From Escherichia coli (GTDB taxonomy: Bacteria; Pseudomonadota; Gammaproteobacteria; Enterobacterales; Enterobacteriaceae): 64,000 nucleotides of DNA. Positions 3,262 through 43,649 of this stretch are shown here, piece after piece. The stretch lies in assembly GCF_024502345.1 (NCBI RefSeq), contig NZ_JALDNN010000001.1. One strand, given 5' to 3'. The notes under the pieces were generated by a model. That model worked only from the letters and a program-made list of their open reading frames with translations. It did no database searches and had not been told where the DNA came from. Within the stretch, counting starts at the first letter, position 1. The number at the start of each line of letters is the position of its first letter. The position numbers and the translations under genes were made by a program.

Positions 3262-3308
3262 AATAGCAATAAGTATTGATATCACCAATAGCAATAGCTA
3301 TTATCACC
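3262..3308 (+). promoter_or_regulatory. Second operator set with pL-like promoter
   Basis: AATAGCAAT at 3262-3270; palindrome AATAGC-AATA-GCTATT at 3287-3302; TATCACC direct repeats at 3280-3286 and 3302-3308; TTGATA (3276-3281), 17-nt spacer, TATTAT (3299-3304) on the + strand. Confidence 0.4.
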
Positions 3309-3497
3309 ATATCGCAACAACACAACGATACGGCAACCACCTGATTCACCGTTGCGATGACCGCTTAGATCCGCAGCTTGAATTTCAGCAGGCTTCGGGG
3401 AGTGCGAGGGATGAAACGGACGCGTGAACGTCGGTGTGACCAGCTGAAATCAACTCAACATTTCATACCTTAGTCGCTTCAACGAGGCGGCTTAGTT

Positions 3498-3788
3498 ATG
3501 ACAACCGGCGGCCATCCACCGCCTGAATACGCGCAGAAGTCTTTATATGTTCAGCAGCCCAGCTTACGGGCAGGAGTTTTTATGGTTCATCAACATTACG
3601 GAACGCAGACCGTTAATCGCGGTGCGGTCATGCCAGGAATGCTGGTCAAACGCAAAGATGGTACCTGGACTGCATCAGCTAATTTACGCGGACGACTTTA
3701 TCTGCATCGCGGCATTGAGCGCACTTATACCCGTGACTTGCTCGTGGAAGTTTTTCTCGACGGACGCGGCAACGGTCTGAATCACTAA
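3498..3788 (+). CDS. Hypothetical prophage protein (96 aa)
   Basis: ORF with GAGG about 10 nt upstream; no family recognised; an internal start MVHQHYG at 3582 is also possible. Confidence 0.35.
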   Translation: MTTGGHPPPEYAQKSLYVQQPSLRAGVFMVHQHYGTQTVNRGAVMPGMLVKRKDGTWTASANLRGRLYLHRGIERTYTRDLLVEVFLDGRGNGLNH

Positions 3789-3863
3789 TCCCCTTTCCTG
3801 TTTTCCGAATCAGCCTGGCATTCCGCGGGCGATTTTTTCACAGCCATTTTCAGGAGTTCAGCC

Positions 3864-4148
3864 ATGAACGCTTATTACATTCAGGATCGTCTTGAGGCTC
3901 AGAGCTGGGCGCGTCACTACCAGCAGATCGCCCGTGAAGAGAAAGAGGCAGAACTGGCAGACGACATGGAAAAAGGCCTGCCCCAGCACCTGTTTGAATC
4001 GCTATGCATCGATCATTTGCAACGCCACGGGGCCAGCAAAAAAGCCATTAGGCGCGATCACTTTCATCTACTCCGTTACAAAGCGAGGCTGGGTATTTCC
4101 CGGCCTTTCTGTTATCAGAAATCCACTGAAAGCACAGCGGCTGGCTGA
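3864..4148 (+). CDS. Hypothetical prophage protein (94 aa)
   Basis: [31 protein letters not shown]... with AGGAG 9 nt upstream. Confidence 0.5.
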
Positions 4149-4748: not shown

Positions 4749-4990
4749 GTTGATACCGCAATGCGGTGTAATCGCGTGAATTATACGGTCAACCCTTGCT
4801 GAGTCAATGGCTTTTGATCTGGTTGCTGAACAAGTGAACGACCGCGTCTGATTTTCTGATTTATTTCGCTATAGCGGCAAACAAACACACACCGCTGCGC
4901 GTCTGAATCAAGAAAACCCGTATTTTCATGTATCAAAGTACAATTTACCGCCCTAACGGAAAATTGTCCGCTCCTATGAGACTGGTAACT

Positions 4991-5623
4991 ATGAAACCAA
5001 CGTCGGTGATCATTATGGATACTCATCCTATCATCAGAATGTCTATTGAAGTTCTGTTGCAAAAAAACAGTGAATTGCAGATTGTCCTGAAAACGGATGA
5101 TTACCGCATAACCATCGATTATCTCCGAACCCGTCCTGTTGATTTAATCATTATGGATATAGACTTGCCCGGAACAGACGGTTTTACCTTCCTGAAAAGG
5201 ATCAAACAAATCCAGAGCACAGTGAAAGTGTTATTTTTATCATCGAAATCAGAATGCTTTTATGCTGGCAGAGCGATACAAGCTGGTGCTAACGGTTTTG
5301 TCAGTAAATGCAATGATCAGAATAATATTTTTCATGCCGTTCAGATGATCCTCTCCGGATACACGTTTTTTCCCAGCGAAACGCTTAACTATATAAAAAG
5401 CAATAAATGTAGTACGAATAGTTCAACGGTCACTGTGCTATCTAATCGTGAAGTGACCATATTACGTTATCTGGTTAGCGGATTATCTAATAAAGAAATT
5501 GCCGATAAGTTATTACTTAGCAATAAAACAGTTAGTGCGCATAAATCTAATATTTATGGCAAGCTAGGTTTGCATTCAATTGTAGAGCTTATCGACTACG
5601 CCAAATTATACGAATTAATATAA
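4991..5623 (+). CDS. fimZ: Fimbrial response regulator FimZ (LuxR-type)
   Basis: 210 aa from MKPTSVIIMDTHPIIRMSIEVLL...; receiver domain plus C-terminal LuxR HTH. The ORF track's upstream start at 4928 is probably an overcall. Confidence 0.9.
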   Translation: MKPTSVIIMDTHPIIRMSIEVLLQKNSELQIVLKTDDYRITIDYLRTRPVDLIIMDIDLPGTDGFTFLKRIKQIQSTVKVLFLSSKSECFYAGRAIQAGANGFVSKCNDQNNIFHAVQMILSGYTFFPSETLNYIKSNKCSTNSSTVTVLSNREVTILRYLVSGLSNKEIADKLLLSNKTVSAHKSNIYGKLGLHSIVELIDYAKLYELI

Positions 5624-5720
5624 TATTAATTATAATTGATCATAAATATCGCATCCGCTTTCGCCGGTGATGCTGCCAACTTACTGATTTAGTGTATGAT
5701 GGTGTTTTTGAGGTGCTCCA

Positions 5721-35120: not shown

Positions 35121-35199
35121 TGAGGGACGTATTTGTATTAGTCGCGACTTGATCTGACACATGGCCTTGAAAGGTTGAGAGTTACCGGTTTTGATATGA

Positions 35200-35580
35200 G
35201 TGTCGAATCCTTATCCAAAACAAGAGGTAACTCTCATGCTTCATACTGCCAATCCCGTCATCAAACACAAAGCCGGTTTGCTCAATCTGGCTGAAGAACT
35301 CAGCAACGTATCAAAAGCCTGTAAAATCATGGGCGTTTCGCGTGATACGTTTTATCGTTACCGCGAACTGGTCGCTGAAGGCGGTGTGGATGCGCAGATT
35401 AATCGTAGTCGCCGCGCTCCTAACCTTAAGAACCGTACCGATGAGGCAACTGAACAGGCTGTTGTTGATTACGCCGTCGCTTTCCCGACACATGGTCAGC
35501 ACCGGGCCAGCAACGAGCTGCGTAAACAGGGGGGTTTTTATCTCCGACAGTGGTGTCCGTTCTGTCTGGTTACTCCATAA
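35200..35580 (+). pseudogene. ybbD: IS481-family-like transposase, N-terminal fragment
   Basis: 126-aa ORF with HTH ...KACKIMGVSRDTFYRYRELVAEGGVDAQINRSRRAPNLKNRTDEATEQAVVDYAVAFPTHGQHRASNELRKQG...; the DDE catalytic domain is missing. Confidence 0.6.
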
Positions 35581-35620
35581 CCTTGAGAATCTCAAAAGAC
35601 GATACTGAACAAATTTTATC

Positions 35621-35756
35621 AGGTGACGTTCCGTAAAAAGTTGTATGGAGTTCTCGATGCAGTCGGCGCGACTATCAGTACCCCCGCTGAACCCTGGACT
35701 ATCGGGCCGCCGTACTGGGGCATGTCACCCTGGCGTGCCGCTGGTTTTCCGCTAAT
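35621..35756 (-). pseudogene. ylbH: Orphan Rhs N-terminal fragment
   Basis: Reads [26 protein letters not shown]..., about 80% nucleotide identity to the first ~95 nt of the rhs gene at 40806, but with ATT where that gene has ATG. Confidence 0.7.
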
Positions 35757-36122
35757 GGTTTATTTCCTCTTTCTTTCCCGGCAAGAATTTATTTTAATCC
35801 GGAAGGATTATTTATTTTCAGATAGGGACTCACATTAAACACGTAACATTTTAATTAATGCATGGCTGAATATGTATTACACAATGTCAGATATCGTAAA
35901 AGACCAGTGCAATTCTATGTAAACTCTCTGACTGTTCATTTTATTTGTTGTTTCAGGGTCGGAACTCACCCTCAATAAACAACTGAATACGAGTAGATAT
36001 TCATCGTCTGAGCTATATGGCTTTACACAATAGCCGACATGTCTTTTCTCAGTCAGGAATTTTACTTTTCCTCACTACGAAGTTGACGACTTCGATATGG
36101 GATAGACTCTTAATTCAAGCAA

Positions 36123-36584
36123 TTACTCTGCACAAGCATCAGGCAATCCAGCTCCAATATTTGTTATAAAATAATGCGTAACATTAATTTCACCAACAAA
36201 AAAAAGGTTTACACCATCCCCTTGCCCTGGTATCTTACCATATTTACACCACACTTTTTTTGTATCTGGATCATTCTTTGATACGATTTTCGCCACTTGT
36301 TCCCTGGCCCTCACTGTCAATGTTTTCTTAAACCTACCCCCATCATCATTTGTTAGGGAAAAATAAGAAAAAAAATAATCATCTTCTACATTTGTGTATA
36401 TTGATATATCCACCGCTACGTGCGGAAAAAAATCTGGGAGCCATGTAAAAACTCCATCATTTTCTGGTATTGCCATATAGTTTATGTAATGTTTACTTAC
36501 AAGAGATTCATCTTTGTATAAATAAAGATAAGTAATTACGCATAAAACAACAATGATTATAATAGCAAAAATAAATATTATCAT
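36123..36584 (-). CDS. Putative Rhs immunity protein (N-terminal transmembrane helix)
   Basis: AT-rich ORF just downstream of the rhs stop; MIIFIFAIIIIVVLCVITYLYLY...; the longer version starting at 36614 would overlap rhs by 20 nt. Confidence 0.6.
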   Translation of the reverse strand: MIIFIFAIIIIVVLCVITYLYLYKDESLVSKHYINYMAIPENDGVFTWLPDFFPHVAVDISIYTNVEDDYFFSYFSLTNDDGGRFKKTLTVRAREQVAKIVSKNDPDTKKVWCKYGKIPGQGDGVNLFFVGEINVTHYFITNIGAGLPDACAE

Positions 36585-36594
36585 CTTTGATAGA

Positions 36595-39500
36595 TTACTT
36601 GAGATAGCCAGCATCTTGTAAAGCCTTTATCGTTTTTTTATGCTCTGGATTAATATAATCACTACATCTATCTGAGCAATCTGTTGTTGATGGACATGTC
36701 AACCCATGGTCATTTACAGCCAAGTCTTTTTTATTATCTTCAATCATTTCAGAATGGGATAGCTTTACTTTTCTGCCGTACATACCGAACAGATTTAACC
36801 CGTAATCTCTAATCTCTTTTTCATAACCCAGCCCTTTCGCCGATCGGCTAACACCAGCGTCATTTAATTTAGACACTCGACAAAATGCCATACAATGAAA
36901 AAATTGATCAGTCCCACCTAAATTTAATCTCTTCATATCTTCATAAGTATCAGATAATATATCCCATGCTCTTTGATGGTTTAGTTGATCTTTTCTTCTT
37001 ATTAGCGCTACATCTGCGGGACTTAACCCTAATGGATCAATACCATTCACCGGATTCAGCGGATACGCATACAGACTCCATCCCCCCTCCAGCCCTATCG
37101 GGTCCTGAGTGATATACCGCCCCTGCAACGGATCGTAGTACCGGTTCCGGTTGTAGTACAGCCCCGACTCCTTATCATACTGCTGCCCCGGCAGCCGGTA
37201 CGGCTGGTGCAGGTGATGCGGGTTCTCCTCATTAAGCTGGTTGCCCCATTCATCATATTCCGCGCTCCACGCCGTATTGCCGTCTTCACTGATAAGCGCC
37301 AGCGGCAGGCCCCGGTGGTCACAGTGATAAAGATGTATTTTTCGCTCAGGCAAATAAACCGGCTCTATCTGTGCCGCCAGCCGCTCCACCGTCAGCCCGC
37401 ACTGCGCAAGCCACTGGCGGCTTTCACTGCTCACGCAGTTTGCCCGGATTTCCCCCTCCAGCCTGTCCAGCAGCCCCACCAGTTCAGCCGGGAACACCAC
37501 ACCGTGACCGTCTTCGCTCCCTTCCTGCTGTAACTTCTCCGCCAGGCTGCGGCACTGCGCTTTCTCCCGTTCACCGTTGTCTGTTTCGATGCGGATGAGC
37601 GGCGCGAAGCTCCCCGGCAGGTAGACCGTCTGGATTCGCGTGGTATCTGTCTGTACCGTCGTCAGGCGGTCTCCGTCCCAGCCGTACCATGTCATCTCCG
37701 GTTTACGCGACAGCGACATCCACCCCGTCAGGTCACGCTCCCGCCGCCATACCCGTTTCGCCATTCGCCGTCCCAGCGGGTCGTAGAGGTAGCGGCTCTC
37801 GACCAGTGGCTCGCCATGCTGTATCCGCGTGTGGAACACCAGGCGGTGCTGGCTGTCGTAGTGGTAGTGGTGGGTCCGCTCGTCGTCCGTCCGTATCACA
37901 CCCGTCGGGATGCGGTCCGTCTTCTCCGTCAGTCTGCCGTATTCATCATAGTGGTAAACATAGTGCGCATCCTCTGCGATGCGGTTATCCGGCCACGCCG
38001 TGAGCGTGCTGTCCGGGTGTAGCTCCGGGTCCGGCAGGCGGTTTCCCGCCGGGTCGGTGGCATACGGGATGCGGATGTCCAGGTCCGGTGCGAGGGTGCG
38101 CACGCTCTCCAGCCTGCCCGTGGCACTGTAGCCGTATTCCCGCGTCTGTCGCGGACCGCTGATGCGCACCAGGTCGCCGTTGTCATTCCACCCGTAGTCA
38201 CGGTCATACACCAGGCTGTTCAGGTGCTGGCTCTGTAACTGGCCTGCGGGGGTGTATGTGCTGGTCAGTTCATATGCGGCATTACTGCCTGCCATGCTGC
38301 CAAAGCTGCGCACCGTCTCCCGGTGCAGGCGGTCGCGCGTGTACTCCAGCAGCGGCGTGTCGCCGAGCTTCATGCCCGCCAGATAACCGCTGCCATACGT
38401 CAGCCACTCCACCGGCGGCAGGCTGTCCGGCGTGACGCGGTTTGCCAGCCCCTGTTCGTTGTAGGCGTGCGTTGTCTCATGCTGCCACAGCAGTTCCCCC
38501 GTCTCCGGGTTCTCCACCGTCTGGCGTTCGCCGGTCAGGCGGCCTTTATCGTCATAGCCGTAGTGGACCGACACGCGGTGGCCTTCACTGGTATGGCTGA
38601 GGGTGGTTAACCACCCGTGCTCATCATACTGCCACTGCTCTGCCGGGTCGCCGTTCACCGTCCGGTGCGTGATGCGGTCCGACGCATCGTAGTGCCAGAG
38701 GGTGATAAGCCCCTCATCCTCACTCTGCGTGAGTTTTCCGGTCAGGTCATAATGATAACGTTGCGTCCGCCCGTCAAAGCCGCCCTGCTGTACCAGCCGG
38801 TCCAGCGCATCGTAGCTGAAGTCGCTGTGACTGCCGTTCTCGTTAGTCAGACTGATGACACGTCCGGCAGCATCGTACTCCATACTGCGCGTCAGCCCGC
38901 CCTGCGTGGTGCTGACCGCCTTTCCCCACGCATCGTACTGTGTCTCGCTCCGGTTGCCGTCCGGGGTGATAACGGCAGTCAGGTCGCCTGCGGCGTTGTA
39001 CTCATACTGCGTTTCACGGCCCTGTGCGTCTTTCACCGAGGTTAACCGGCCACGGTTGTCATAGTGGCGGTAAAGGCTGATACCTTCCTCGCGGTGAACC
39101 GCCGTCATCTGGCCGAAGCGGTCGTATTCATAGCGGGTCTGGTAGCCCGAGCAGTCAGTGAACGCCAGCAACTGCCCGTAGCGGCTCCACGTCATCTGCC
39201 GGGTGCTGCCCGTCGCATCCGTTGTCGTCGCCGGTAACTCACTGTGCGCGTCATCGTAGCGGTAGCGTACTGTCTCCCCGCTGCGCGATGTCTCCGATAC
39301 CAGCCTGCCCGGTTCATCATATTCCCGGCGGCTCTCCAGCCCGTCCGGGTACACCACCGCCGTCAGCTGGTTCCCGTCGTTATAGTAAAATTTCGTCTCC
39401 CGCCCGTCCGGTGTGGTGATGTCCGTGATATCGCCGGACACCACATTCAGACCGTACTCTGTCCGCCGTCCCGCCGCGTCCGTCTGCGCCGTGAGCCTTC

Positions 39501-40806
39501 CTGCCGCGTCATACCCGCTGCGCGTGACGCTGCCGTCCGCCAGTTCTTTTTTCACCACCCGTTTCAGCCCGGCCCCGCCTTCTGTATGCAGCACCTCACG
39601 CCGGTTCAGGCTGTCGGTGACGGTGATGCGGTCCTGCTCATAAAGATAGCGGTAGCTTAACCCTGCCGGGTTCAGTTGCTCCACCACCCGCCCCGTATCG
39701 TCGTAGCGGTAGCGCATCTCCGGCCTGCCTGCATAACGGTGCCCCACCATCCGGCCCCGGTATTTATCATCGTAAGTAAAGTGGCGCATCTGCGTACCGC
39801 TGCGGTCATACACCGCCGCCAGCTCACCGCGTGGCGTCCAGTCGTAGCACACCAGTGGCGCGGCAGGTAAATTTTCCGGGTATTCCGGGTCGTGCATCAG
39901 CCACACCGCCGAAAGACGGATACCGCTGTCAGCGCCGTATTCCGTACCGGGCAGTGTGTCGGGGAAGGAAGGAGCTGAGAGAGGGCGGGGACTGTCAGGG
40001 GAAGATAACGAAGCGGTGTGCGGTTTACGGGCCTCTTCCGCCCGCTGTGCCTGTGTGGTCAGTACCAGACGGAACTCCCGCCCGGCACCGTCCGTCACGC
40101 CGGTGATTTCCCCGGCCAGGTCACCGGCGGCCTCACGCCGGTACGCCAGCGTCCGCCCGAAGCGGTCCGCCATCCCGGTAAGCACCCGGTACGGCGGCAG
40201 CGGCGCTGGCAGTAAGTCCTCAGCACCCGGCACCCGCTCAGACCACCCCAGTATCCACCACGGCCCCTGTGCGCTGTTGGTCGCCAGGTAAAGATGCGGG
40301 CTTAACCGGATATCCGGTGGCAGCGACGCCCACAGCCGTGCCAGCGTGTGGCCGTCCGGCTGCGCTGCCTTACCGCCACGCACCAGCCACATTGACTCAC
40401 TGCGGCTGTACACCGCCTCCCCCGGCAGCAGCGGCTCAAAGTGAATGCTCCGCCCGCCGTTGTCGTTGAGTATCAGTGCATCATCGCGTATCTGTAAGCG
40501 GATATCAGAAGGCGCTTTCCAGCCGGGGCCGAAAACGCCCACCGGTGCAGGCGTCTTCGTCCGGTAGCTGCTGTAGGTGCGGGAGAGAATGAACGGCAGC
40601 GGGCCGGGCAGCGCAAGGTCCGTCTCGCCGGGCTGTACTTTTGCACCGAGCAGCGGGTTCACCGGGTTGCCCGAGGTCATCCCGCCCGGACACACCGAGC
40701 ACGCCACGCCAGTTGGCGCGCCAATTCTTACACCTGCCGAACCCTGGACAATGGGACCGCCATACTGAGTCATATCTCCCTGACGCGCCGCTGGTTTTCC
40801 GCTCAT
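36595..40806 (-). CDS. rhsD: Rhs-family polymorphic toxin (YD-repeat protein)
   Basis: 1403 aa; N-terminus [25 protein letters not shown]; many YD repeats; DPxGL motif ([12 protein letters not shown]) followed by a 141-aa AT-rich C-terminal tip (about 36598-37020). Locus equated to rhsD by position. Confidence 0.9.
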
Positions 40807-41234
40807 ATAAAGTGCCCTTTTAGTTATTGTTCATATCCCTGTGTTAGCAACAAAAAAAATAAAATGACACACAAGACCAGCTAATGTATTTATATATTTT
40901 TCACATAAACTTATTTGTTCTCAATCAACAACAACTGTTATTACAGGTCACTTTCAATATTTTATTAAACTAAAATTTTTAGCACAGATGAATTCATCAT
41001 CAACAAATTCACTATATGGATAATATCCATTCAACGCATATGATTTATGATTTTATTAGTCTGAGTTATTTTTGTAGGGCTATATTTAAAATTATTAAAC
41101 TCCACCGATTCAGATTAATATCGCAATAGAAAGATAGGAAATCACCAATTCAATAACATCATCAATGAAACATATTGTAGAATTAATTTAAACAAGGCGT
41201 TCCATTCAACCAGAACGCCCCTTATTTACTCTCA

Positions 41235-43649
41235 TCACCCCGCAAACTGCCTGAACAGCGCCTTACCCTTAACCAGTCGCGCACCCAGCCAGCCGCCGAA
41301 AAGCGACAGCAGCAGCGCACCGCTGCACGGCAGAACAATCCACAATCGCCAGTCTGGCTCCCACGGGAAATCAAACACTTTCGCCTGCAACACTGCCAGT
41401 GCCGTTTCCGCACCAATTGCGGCCACCAGGCCGGAAACAAACCCAAGCATGACGAACTCACACCACAATGTCGTGCGCAGCAGTTTTTTCCCCGCACCGA
41501 GTGTGCGCCATACCACCAGCTCCTGATGACGCTGGCGCATTCCCACCTGCACCTGTGCCAGCAACAGCAACATACCGCAGGCGGTGACCAGCACCACCAT
41601 CACCTCCAGCGCCCGACTTACCTGCTCCAGCACCTGACCGACCTGTTTTAAAATCGCGCCAATATCTAACAGGCTAATGGTCGGGAACTGGCGGTTGAGT
41701 TGCGTCAACATGCCGTTGCCATTCTCCCAGCGGAAACTGGTAAGCCAGCTCTGCGGTTGCCCGTCTAATGCCCCTTCCGGGAAAATAAAATAGAAATTAG
41801 GCCGCAGACTTTCCCAGTCCACTTTGCGCAGGCTGGTCACTTTAGCGCGGAACTCCTGGGTATCGCCCATAAAAGTCACGGTATCACCGAGGGCAACGTT
41901 TAAGCGTTTCGCCAGCCCCTCTTCCATCGACACTTCATCGGCTTTTGGCGGCCAGTTACCGGCGACAATCGGATTATGATCGGGCCGCGTATTTTGCCAG
42001 GTAAGATTGAGTTCGCGATTAAGCGCCTCATCTTCATTACCTTCTGTCGGCTTATCGTTAATCGCCGTCAGCCGCGCCCGCACTACCGGATAAAATGATT
42101 CCGGGACTATATGATGTTCCGCGAGGAACGCTTTTAGCGGTGCTACCTGTTCTGTGGCGATGTTAATTAAAAAGTAGTTCGGGCTTTCTGGCGGTAGCTG
42201 CTGCTGCCAGCGGTCGAGCAGATCGCCACGCAATACCAGCAACAGCGCCAGCAGCATAAAGGAGAGCGAAAATGCCGAAAGCTGGCTTAACGTTGACCAC
42301 GGCTGACGTAACAGGCGGCTAACCGCCAGGCGCAAAGGTAGCGATTTCAGCGTCATGCGGCGAAGTACATTCAGCTGCATCCAGCCCAGCACACCGCACA
42401 GCAAAGCCAGTACTACCGCGCCCGCCAGCACCGCCCAAAGCAGCATGCTGCCACCCATTAATCCGGCGAGCAGCAGCACAACCACCACACTGACAATCGG
42501 CAGATAAAACTTCAGCGGCCAGACGTTCGCTACCACATCATTATGTAATACGCGTAAAGGCTGCGTTGCCAGCAACAAGCGGTATGGTCGTAGCCCCACC
42601 AGCAGCGAGATGACCGTCATGGTGCCAAGCGCCCACAGCCACGGCCAGAGGCTGGCTGGCGGTAGTGCAGCAGGCAGAACGGGCTTGAGCAGCACCATCA
42701 ACACGTTTTCGAACAACAGGCCTATGGCCCCACCGGTAACGGCTGAAAGCGTCAGCACCATCAACCACTGACCGACGATTAGCTTACGCAGTTGCGCTCG
42801 CCCTGCCCCCAGCGTTTTGAGGATCGCCACCAGATCGTAGCGACTGCGACAGTAATGATTCATCGCTACCGCCACCGCTGCCACTGCCAGCAGCAAGGTC
42901 AGAAGCGCCGAAAGCAGCAGGAACTGTTGCGAGCGTTCCATCGATCGCCCCAGCGCGCCTTCGTCCTGTTCCAGACCGTACCAGCGTTGTTCGGGTTTAA
43001 GCTGAGGTAACAACCATTTCTCATAGCCGTCGAGCTGGTTCTCGTTGCCGCCGAATTTATAACGCCAGGTGACCCGACTCCCCGGCTGCACGGCTCCGGT
43101 TTTATCGACATCCGCCAGATTCATCATCAGACGCGGAGCCATCTGGAAGGGGTTAAAACCGGAATCCGGTTCCTGAATCACTTCTCCGGCAATCCGCAAG
43201 GTGGCATCGCCCACGTCAATGGTGTCGCCCGTTTTCAGGTTAAGCAGTGCCATCAGGCGTGGGGCCAGCAATACGCTGCCCGCCTGCGGTTTCAGGCCAG
43301 GGGGATTAGTTTGCAGATCGCCATACATCGGGTAGATATCATCCACCGCTTTGACGTTCGCCAGCTGCGGTGTGTCGCCTGCAAAGGTCATTGTGGCGAA
43401 AGTCAGCTGCTTGCCGACTTTCAGGCCGCGCTTTTGCGCTTCCTCCAGCCACGCTTGCGGCACTTCGCGTGAACTGCGCAACGCCCGATCGCCCGCCATA
43501 AACTCACGGCTTTGCTGGCTTAAGCCCTTCTCCATGCGATCGCTGATATTGCCCAGCGCCAGCACGCAGGCCACCGCCAGGCTTAGCGCCAGCCAGACAA
43601 TTAATAGCGACGGCGAACGCCATTCGCGCCAGAACCAACGTGCAATCAT
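41235..43649 (-). CDS. ybbP: ABC transporter permease (FtsX-like, two-domain)
   Basis: 804 aa, MIARWFWREWRSPSLLIVWLALSLAVACVLAL... Confidence 0.9.
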   Translation of the reverse strand: MIARWFWREWRSPSLLIVWLALSLAVACVLALGNISDRMEKGLSQQSREFMAGDRALRSSREVPQAWLEEAQKRGLKVGKQLTFATMTFAGDTPQLANVKAVDDIYPMYGDLQTNPPGLKPQAGSVLLAPRLMALLNLKTGDTIDVGDATLRIAGEVIQEPDSGFNPFQMAPRLMMNLADVDKTGAVQPGSRVTWRYKFGGNENQLDGYEKWLLPQLKPEQRWYGLEQDEGALGRSMERSQQFLLLSALLTLLLAVAAVAVAMNHYCRSRYDLVAILKTLGAGRAQLRKLIVGQWLMVLTLSAVTGGAIGLLFENVLMVLLKPVLPAALPPASLWPWLWALGTMTVISLLVGLRPYRLLLATQPLRVLHNDVVANVWPLKFYLPIVSVVVVLLLAGLMGGSMLLWAVLAGAVVLALLCGVLGWMQLNVLRRMTLKSLPLRLAVSRLLRQPWSTLSQLSAFSLSFMLLALLLVLRGDLLDRWQQQLPPESPNYFLINIATEQVAPLKAFLAEHHIVPESFYPVVRARLTAINDKPTEGNEDEALNRELNLTWQNTRPDHNPIVAGNWPPKADEVSMEEGLAKRLNVALGDTVTFMGDTQEFRAKVTSLRKVDWESLRPNFYFIFPEGALDGQPQSWLTSFRWENGNGMLTQLNRQFPTISLLDIGAILKQVGQVLEQVSRALEVMVVLVTACGMLLLLAQVQVGMRQRHQELVVWRTLGAGKKLLRTTLWCEFVMLGFVSGLVAAIGAETALAVLQAKVFDFPWEPDWRLWIVLPCSGALLLSLFGGWLGARLVKGKALFRQFAG

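Follow-up and report, generated by a model that had tools for sequence, protein, structure and literature searches.

The stretch of DNA analysed here, referred to below as the window, is 64,000 nucleotides long and belongs to an Escherichia coli chromosome. The spacer under study (40807-41234, minus strand) covers 428 bp with a GC content of 0.28 and represents the upstream, non-coding end of an RhsD island. It is bordered by an RhsD-type rhs ORF of 1403 aa (36595-40806, minus strand, ATG at 40806-40804) and by ybbP (41235-43649, minus strand), which encodes an FtsX-type ABC permease of 804 aa with FtsX domains and ends with the stop codon TGA at 41237-41235. Of the 5426 complete E. coli genomes, 4869 match a 641-bp query around the spacer, with an identity of 90-100% (at least 95% in all matching records except 42), and in the RefSeq annotation of these matches the spacer is flanked by RHS element core protein/rhsD and ybbP. 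The gene order, tesA / ybbA-ybbP / rhsD ... ylbG / mnmH(selU) / allS, is the one found at minute 11 of the K-12 map.

The rhs ORF displays the features of Rhs elements, namely repeats, a core domain, a GC-rich core, an AT-rich tip and a small gene following it, with Pfam matches to RHS_repeat (E-value 1.9e-70), DUF6531 (1.7e-18) and RHS (2.8e-16). The GC content of its core is 0.58-0.70 and drops to 0.28-0.40 below position 37100. This fall from about 0.6 at the 3' end of the ORF (window 36100-37100) continues through an ORF of 163 aa (36123-36614), which overlaps the end and stop codon of the rhs ORF and has no Pfam match; the AT-rich 3' tip and the 163-aa ORF are the usual variable toxin tip of Rhs proteins and its putative immunity gene. 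In the near-identical genomes of E. coli strains E2863 (spacer match of 100%) and UTAK-10, RefSeq marks rhs and ybbP alike as pseudogenes with frameshifts, unlike the copies in the window, whose ORFs of 1403 and 804 aa are intact.

An earlier note made from the letters of this DNA had described the region of about 430 bp upstream of rhs as far more AT-rich than its neighbours, with long A/T tracts, and this description is borne out by the base composition. The GC content of the spacer is 0.280, compared with 0.633 in the adjacent 428 bp on the rhsD side, 0.598 in the 428 bp on the ybbP side and 0.52 in the whole window. In sliding windows its composition is far from the average, the spacer being the lowest-GC stretch of 428 bp in the 64 kb: 0.013% of all positions are equally low and every one of them overlaps the spacer, within which the GC content reaches a minimum of 0.24 in 200-bp windows. 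Nine runs of at least 8 nt consist of A and T only, the longest one of 19 nt, and one A8 run and three T5 runs are also present. Outside the Rhs island, the sole other 428-bp stretch with a GC content below 0.35 is found at 5200-5720 (minimum of 0.33), within or beside an ORF of 231 aa (4928-5623, plus strand).

The distribution of the spacer among E. coli genomes is that of a strain-variable element. It is present as a single copy in 2866-2868 of the 5426 complete genomes (at least 80% coverage), nearly always at 95-100% identity, and in the remaining genomes only the ybbP part of the 641-bp query is matched. Two genomes lacking rhsD were inspected at the corresponding junction. In E. coli AF6 the junction is empty, the convergent mnmH and ybbP being separated by 58 bp (3952-4009 of the extracted locus), and in E. 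coli U90 the same junction carries a dinQ-like type I toxin module with REP-like repeats (3293-4003), the module being flanked on both sides by copies of the hairpin AAAAAAACCGACATGACAGTCGGTTTTTTT (3354-3387 and 3837-3858). Pairwise alignment indicates that homology among the three alleles ends 2-10 nt past the ybbP stop codon (window 41225-41233) and that, at the other island border, the shared sequence reaches approximately 35127, just after the mnmH stop codon. Read from these alignments, E. coli has three alleles at the mnmH(selU)/ybbP junction, which is occupied by the RhsD island (window 35128-41232), by an empty spacer or by the dinQ-like module. In a further strain, an IS1 element takes the place of rhsD, yet the last 42 bp of the island, containing the hairpin end, are kept.

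Neither flanking direct repeats, terminal repeats nor a target duplication was seen at the island borders. A repeat search comparing the spacer with the rest of the island recovered only a duplicate of the 5' end of rhs, which ends exactly at the ATG. The duplicate (35660-35756, minus strand) repeats the first 97 nt of the ORF with 79% identity to 40710-40806 and has ATT at the position of the ATG; it corresponds to the ylbI pseudogene of K-12, and the DNA upstream of it is AT-rich and not homologous to the rhsD spacer. Exact scans of 100,044 species-representative genomes gave no match either to the pattern of the hairpin described below with its U-tract (free loop) or to a 29-mer across the leader/ATG junction. 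The spacer had no match in the phage collection, and its matches in the plasmid collection were restricted to chromosome-sized or evidently contaminant records. On these results, the distribution of the spacer is limited to a subset of E. coli. One 19-kb plasmid record of Klebsiella oxytoca (NZ_CP069916.1) contains a ybbP-rhsD spacer of K-12 type with 98.8% identity, which is most likely an E. coli contamination or a misassembled contig.

At the ybbP end of the spacer, a terminator-like hairpin with its tail (41184-41221, minus strand) starts 13 nt past the ybbP TGA. Its arms, GGCGTTC (41196-41202) and GAACGCC (41213-41219), are perfectly complementary over 7 bp, and G-U pairing extends the stem to 41194-41221, followed by the tail UUGUUUAAAUU down to 41184. 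The earlier note had placed the hairpin formed by these arms at 41196-41221; the arms stand as described, and the end at 41221 includes two additional C that pair only by G-U. As minus-strand RNA, the hairpin has 10 bp when G-U pairs are counted and a tail beginning UUGUUU, and its A-rich 5' stretch pairs with the U-rich tail; the folding energy is -16.1 kcal/mol (z = -3.1), none of 200 shuffled sequences folding as well. A terminator scan also flags it at 41221-41194 on the minus strand. The element thus has the structure of an intrinsic terminator, with a stable GC-rich stem-loop, a U-rich tract and a stop codon upstream on the same strand. In the plus-strand RNA, a 7-bp stem (-10.2 kcal/mol, z = -2.75) is followed by CCUUAUUUACU, which makes the hairpin bidirectional in shape. 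The stem and the loop are invariant across eight alleles compared, one of which has a U-to-A change in the tail. The claim that the hairpin is positioned to terminate ybbP on the minus strand consequently holds as far as position is concerned, and on these geometrical grounds a role as the ybbP terminator is plausible.

No 3' end at the hairpin, either under a ybbP label or at K-12 positions 52284x-52289x, is listed by PMC7815308 (Term-seq tables) or PMC6131387 (SMRT-Cappable-seq tables), a weak negative given that ybbP is weakly expressed (logCPM of 4.9). The hairpin is absent from the rhsD-less alleles, and no terminator-like hairpin follows ybbP in the empty-site allele of strain AF6. Because the alleles share sequence only up to 41225-41233, the hairpin at 41194-41221 is the outermost piece of the RhsD island of about 6.1 kb, and belongs to the island and not to the conserved ybbP locus. 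Another terminator-like hairpin, GCAGCGGTGCGCTGCTGC followed by TGTCGCTTTT, is located within the coding sequence of ybbP, at its 3' end (41309-41326, minus strand), and is also present in the rhsD-less allele of strain U90; it is probably a chance match in coding sequence.

On the rhsD side of the hairpin, a predicted sigma-70 promoter of rhsD, TTAATA-17-TGTAAT (40940-40968, minus strand), was located from the sequence proposed by Shimada et al. (PMC3946193, Table 3). It occurs once in the window as an exact match (40968-40940), compared with 0.01 occurrence expected by chance, and is invariant in the eight alleles. From this predicted promoter, the rhsD transcript would start near 40933 with a 5' UTR of about 127 nt. 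A second sense promoter-like site, TTGAGA-17-AAAAAT (40896-40924, minus strand), is proposed from its consensus match of 9/12. Reading of the sequence also reveals a Shine-Dalgarno-like AAGGG (40815-40819, minus strand) 8 nt before the rhsD ATG, and the ribosome-binding region of rhsD is invariant in the eight alleles. The word leader, which the earlier note applied to the whole of the roughly 430 bp, is loose: only the last ~85-130 nt are likely to be 5' UTR, the remainder being promoter and upstream DNA. The sense leader RNA contains more G than C, and so does not resemble a classic C-rich Rho loading site.

Promoter-like motifs are dense in the spacer, with 4.4 hexamers resembling -10 elements per 100 bp compared with 0.74 in the window (a six-fold difference) and relaxed -35/-10 pairs four times denser. 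Nevertheless, the 19 such hexamers observed compare with 21.2 +/- 4.6 in composition-matched shuffles, a strict promoter scan found 2 sites against 1.3 expected, and the relaxed pairs, like the matches to the H-NS motif TCGATAAATT, were equal to or below the numbers in the shuffles. The density of promoter-like sites that defines promoter islands hence follows from base composition, and it provides no independent evidence of function. Motif density was accordingly rejected as such evidence, the counts of both -10-like hexamers and TCGATAAATT not exceeding those of the shuffles.

Among the eight alleles, variation affects 13 of about 430 alignment columns of the spacer and 6 columns of the neighbouring 106 nt of ybbP. 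A poly-T tract (40852-40859, minus strand), located 46 nt upstream of the rhsD ATG, is T8 in the window and ranges from T7 to T9 in natural isolates, and a change from T9 to T10 has been recorded in a laboratory-evolved line (PMC11541549). An A5 tract (40976-40980, minus strand, mapped by alignment with K-12) lies 8 nt upstream of the predicted -35 hexamer. A 1-bp deletion in this tract, at K-12 position 523086, was fixed in four parallel lines selected for motility; once rebuilt, it left growth rate and front migration, the traits read in that study in place of rhsD expression, without a detected change, and the authors concluded that it is neutral (PMC5441876). Both homopolymer tracts (40852-40859 and 40976-40980) are slippage hot spots. 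Two further ideas, that the tracts might be contingency switches tuning rhsD promoter strength or H-NS nucleation and that the edge hairpin might have travelled with the island as a portable insulator working in both directions, are mentioned jointly as a speculation with a slim chance of being correct.

Pairwise alignment shows that the spacer is 99% identical to positions 522831-523260 of E. coli K-12 MG1655, from which it differs by 3 substitutions and 2 single-base indels (one 1-nt indel, and T8 instead of T9 in the poly-T tract). All functional data on the spacer come from K-12 and are applied to the strain of the window through this identity. In Table 1 of Panyukov and Ozoline (2013, PMC3661553), the orthologous DNA is listed as 522099_304, ybbP(+)/rhsD(+), one of the 78 promoter islands of MG1655. 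On the basis of the old K-12 coordinates of ybbP (519640-522054) and of the spacer alignment, this ybbP/rhsD island converts to approximately 40888-41190 of the window, its 304 bp beginning directly after the hairpin tail. It is flagged as foreign DNA by four predictors and carries the H-NS mark 'A', meaning that each of the ChIP studies compared (Grainger, Kahramanoglou and Oshima) found it bound, and the paper reports that promoter islands form open complexes and yield short abortive RNAs (PMC3661553). As for H-NS ChIP at this locus, a check proposed in the earlier note, binding is documented for the K-12 orthologue. Shimada et al. (PMC3946193, Table 3) also place a SELEX site of the RpoD holoenzyme in the ybbP>rhsD spacer, with an HNS mark and the proposed promoter given above.

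The transcriptome of Srinivasan et al. (PMC4288151, sheet 'hs-wt'), in which a negative logFC denotes lower expression in the wild type than in the delta-hns delta-stpA mutant, presents an abrupt change at this position. The logFC is -0.06 for ybbA and -0.93 for ybbP (about 1.9-fold), and it reaches -7.15 for rhsD (P = 7.7e-88), an increase of approximately 142-fold in the double mutant. Further along the K-12 island, the genes that come after rhsD, listed by b-number as b0498/b0499/b0500/b0502, follow the same pattern (ybbC -8.44, ylbH -8.29, b0500 -10.2 and ylbG -4.95), and selU, beyond the other island border, has a logFC of +1.05. The jumps from ybbP to rhsD and from ylbG to selU imply that derepression begins within the spacer and ends at the other border of the island. 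Together with the island distribution, the ChIP results and the SELEX mark, these data support the earlier claim of a horizontally acquired promoter region silenced by H-NS.

Rho termination has also been mapped next to the spacer by Adams et al. (PMC7815308, supplementary file 2), with a region at K-12 523279(+), 19 nt into rhsD (Rho score of 5.35, P = 1.8e-6), which transfers to approximately 40788 of the window. Read counts upstream and downstream of this region, in windows of 800 nt, were 445 and 7 in untreated cells; with bicyclomycin they were 558 and 47. The inhibitor leaves about 92% of the read drop across the spacer in place, which is more in line with an intrinsic terminator, or with plain promoter silence, than with Rho alone. 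As to the start of the rhs transcript, mapping of which had been the other proposed check, the supplement of Kim et al. (PMC3415461) lists wild-type starts for ybbA and ybbP and none for b0497 (rhsD). This is consistent with silence, and the promoter itself stays a prediction.

Taken together, these observations lead to the interpretation of the spacer as the upstream regulatory end of the RhsD island inserted between mnmH/selU and ybbP, acting through four steps, to which as a whole we assign a probability of roughly 85%. The GC-rich stem-loop with its U-rich tail at the island edge would, judging by its geometry, most likely end the ybbA-ybbP transcript and insulate rhsD from it. The next ~300 bp, with 24-27% GC, would bind the RNA polymerase holoenzyme and be coated by H-NS/StpA, and this coat would keep the rhsD promoter or promoters, with candidates at 40968-40940 and 40924-40896, silent in laboratory conditions; such silencing is established in K-12 by ChIP, SELEX and the delta-hns delta-stpA transcriptome, and transferred on 99% identity. 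Rho would stop part of the transcripts that escape, close to where the rhsD ORF begins, as shown in K-12 at a resolution of about 800 nt, and those that pass would carry a leader of ~85-130 nt with the putative AAGGG ribosome-binding site ahead of the ATG. Since H-NS covers other AT-rich parts of the island too, derepression need not depend on the spacer only.

Other explanations were weighed against this model. The most serious of them concerns the hairpin, which might be a non-working intrinsic terminator, either a remnant of the donor context carried at the edge of the island or a stem whose only function is to protect a processed 3' end, transcription of ybbP being ended mainly by Rho and H-NS in the downstream AT-rich DNA. 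The lack of a recorded Term-seq or SMRT-Cappable-seq end at K-12 52284x-52289x would agree with this, as would the interrupted U-tract (UUGUUUAAAUU), the loop of 6-10 nt and the fact that 3 of 10 inner pairs are G-U. Moreover, ybbP functions without the hairpin in the ~47% of genomes that lack the island, its empty-site allele having no terminator-like hairpin at all, and a Rho-dependent drop is found about 400 nt downstream. On the other hand, the hairpin has canonical geometry (a distance of 13 nt from the stop, a perfect GC-rich stem of 7 bp, an A-tract partner, z of -3.1), U occupies 5 of the first 6 tail positions, and this GC-rich palindrome stands alone in DNA of 28% GC while being invariant in the eight alleles. 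Furthermore, the weak expression of ybbP (logCPM of 4.9) makes the absent Term-seq peak weigh little, and more than 90% of the read drop remains with bicyclomycin (47/558). The explanation as a whole is consequently possible, if doubtful. A smaller probability is given to the view that rhsD is silenced mainly by premature Rho termination of an untranslated leader, in an attenuation-type manner, instead of by H-NS-blocked initiation. The Rho termination region at rhsD +19 (score of 5.35, PMC7815308) and the open complexes and short abortive RNAs that PMC3661553 reports for promoter islands speak in its favour. However, bicyclomycin restores only 47/558 reads (~8%) compared with the ~142-fold effect of H-NS/StpA loss, the 800-nt windows imply that the upstream reads may be mostly ybbP mRNA, and the sense leader has more G than C. 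As H-NS and Rho are known to cooperate, Rho is better seen as a contributor than as an alternative, and its dominance is unlikely.

Two simpler readings of the low GC content have hardly any probability. According to one of them, an unannotated small gene, for a small protein or for an sRNA, is hidden in the spacer and accounts for its composition. Six ORFs of 21-37 aa are indeed located wholly within the spacer, which is well conserved in E. coli, with ~3% variable columns compared with ~6% in the adjacent 3' end of ybbP. Nonetheless, the longest of the ORFs wholly contained in the spacer has 37 aa, and none of the six is preceded by a visible ribosome-binding site; the Rfam 15 scan of 40000-42000 (E of at most 1) gave no family in the spacer, the only match being isrB inside rhsD at chance level (21.4 bits for a gathering score of 35, E of 0.53). 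In addition, the spacer is without annotation in every genome listed among its matches, no transcription start or 3' end is recorded for it in the tables of PMC3415461, PMC7815308 and PMC6131387, and the lack of homologues outside E. coli leaves no basis for assessing coding conservation. The other reading takes the low GC content as ordinary intergenic composition without specific meaning, E. coli spacers being generally more AT-rich than genes and those upstream of K-12 rhsA, rhsB and rhsC having a GC content of 0.35-0.37. Yet 0.28 sustained over 428 bp is the most extreme value in the 64-kb window and well under that of the other rhs spacers, the length is about twice theirs, and the low GC content coincides in K-12 with documented H-NS binding and a sharp derepression boundary.

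The four-step silencing model can be compared with systems already described. The closest one is the K-12 promoter island 522099_304 itself, which is the same DNA by orthology, with the flanking genes, the hairpin and the predicted promoter alike and five small differences. The sequence-testable features of H-NS-silenced promoter islands, composition and island association, are both found in the spacer. With xenogeneic silencing by H-NS/StpA, aided by Rho, the spacer shares its AT-rich DNA at the border of a strain-variable island and, via the K-12 data, H-NS binding, a derepression of more than 100-fold upon loss of hns and stpA and a Rho component. It departs from it in that the silenced rhs gene is GC-rich (core of 0.58-0.70), so that AT-rich nucleation DNA is limited to the upstream spacer and the 3' tip/immunity region and does not extend over the whole gene. 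The hairpin resembles bidirectional intrinsic terminators by its GC-rich stem, U-rich tail, A-rich 5' stretch and place just after the stop codon, and differs from them by its interrupted U-tract, its loop of 6-10 nt and its being island-borne instead of gene-borne. The spacers of K-12 rhsA, rhsB and rhsC are likewise AT-rich, non-coding and situated directly before a GC-rich rhs ORF, but have no homology to the rhsD spacer except for a chance-level match of 17 nt; those of rhsA and rhsC are 93% identical to each other, and the rhsD spacer, at about twice their length, is markedly richer in AT.

Through its K-12 orthologue, the spacer is already known as a promoter island and a textbook H-NS target, and nothing about it is new in kind. 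Small additions are made by the present analysis: the hairpin is island-borne and only a few nucleotides from the insertion breakpoint, the mnmH/ybbP junction presents three alleles, the spacer is found in about half of E. coli genomes and in none of the other species representatives, and its poly-T tract is polymorphic from T7 to T9. With little import beyond annotation, the ybbP-rhsD spacer illustrates clearly how E. coli silences a polymorphic-toxin gene of horizontal origin.
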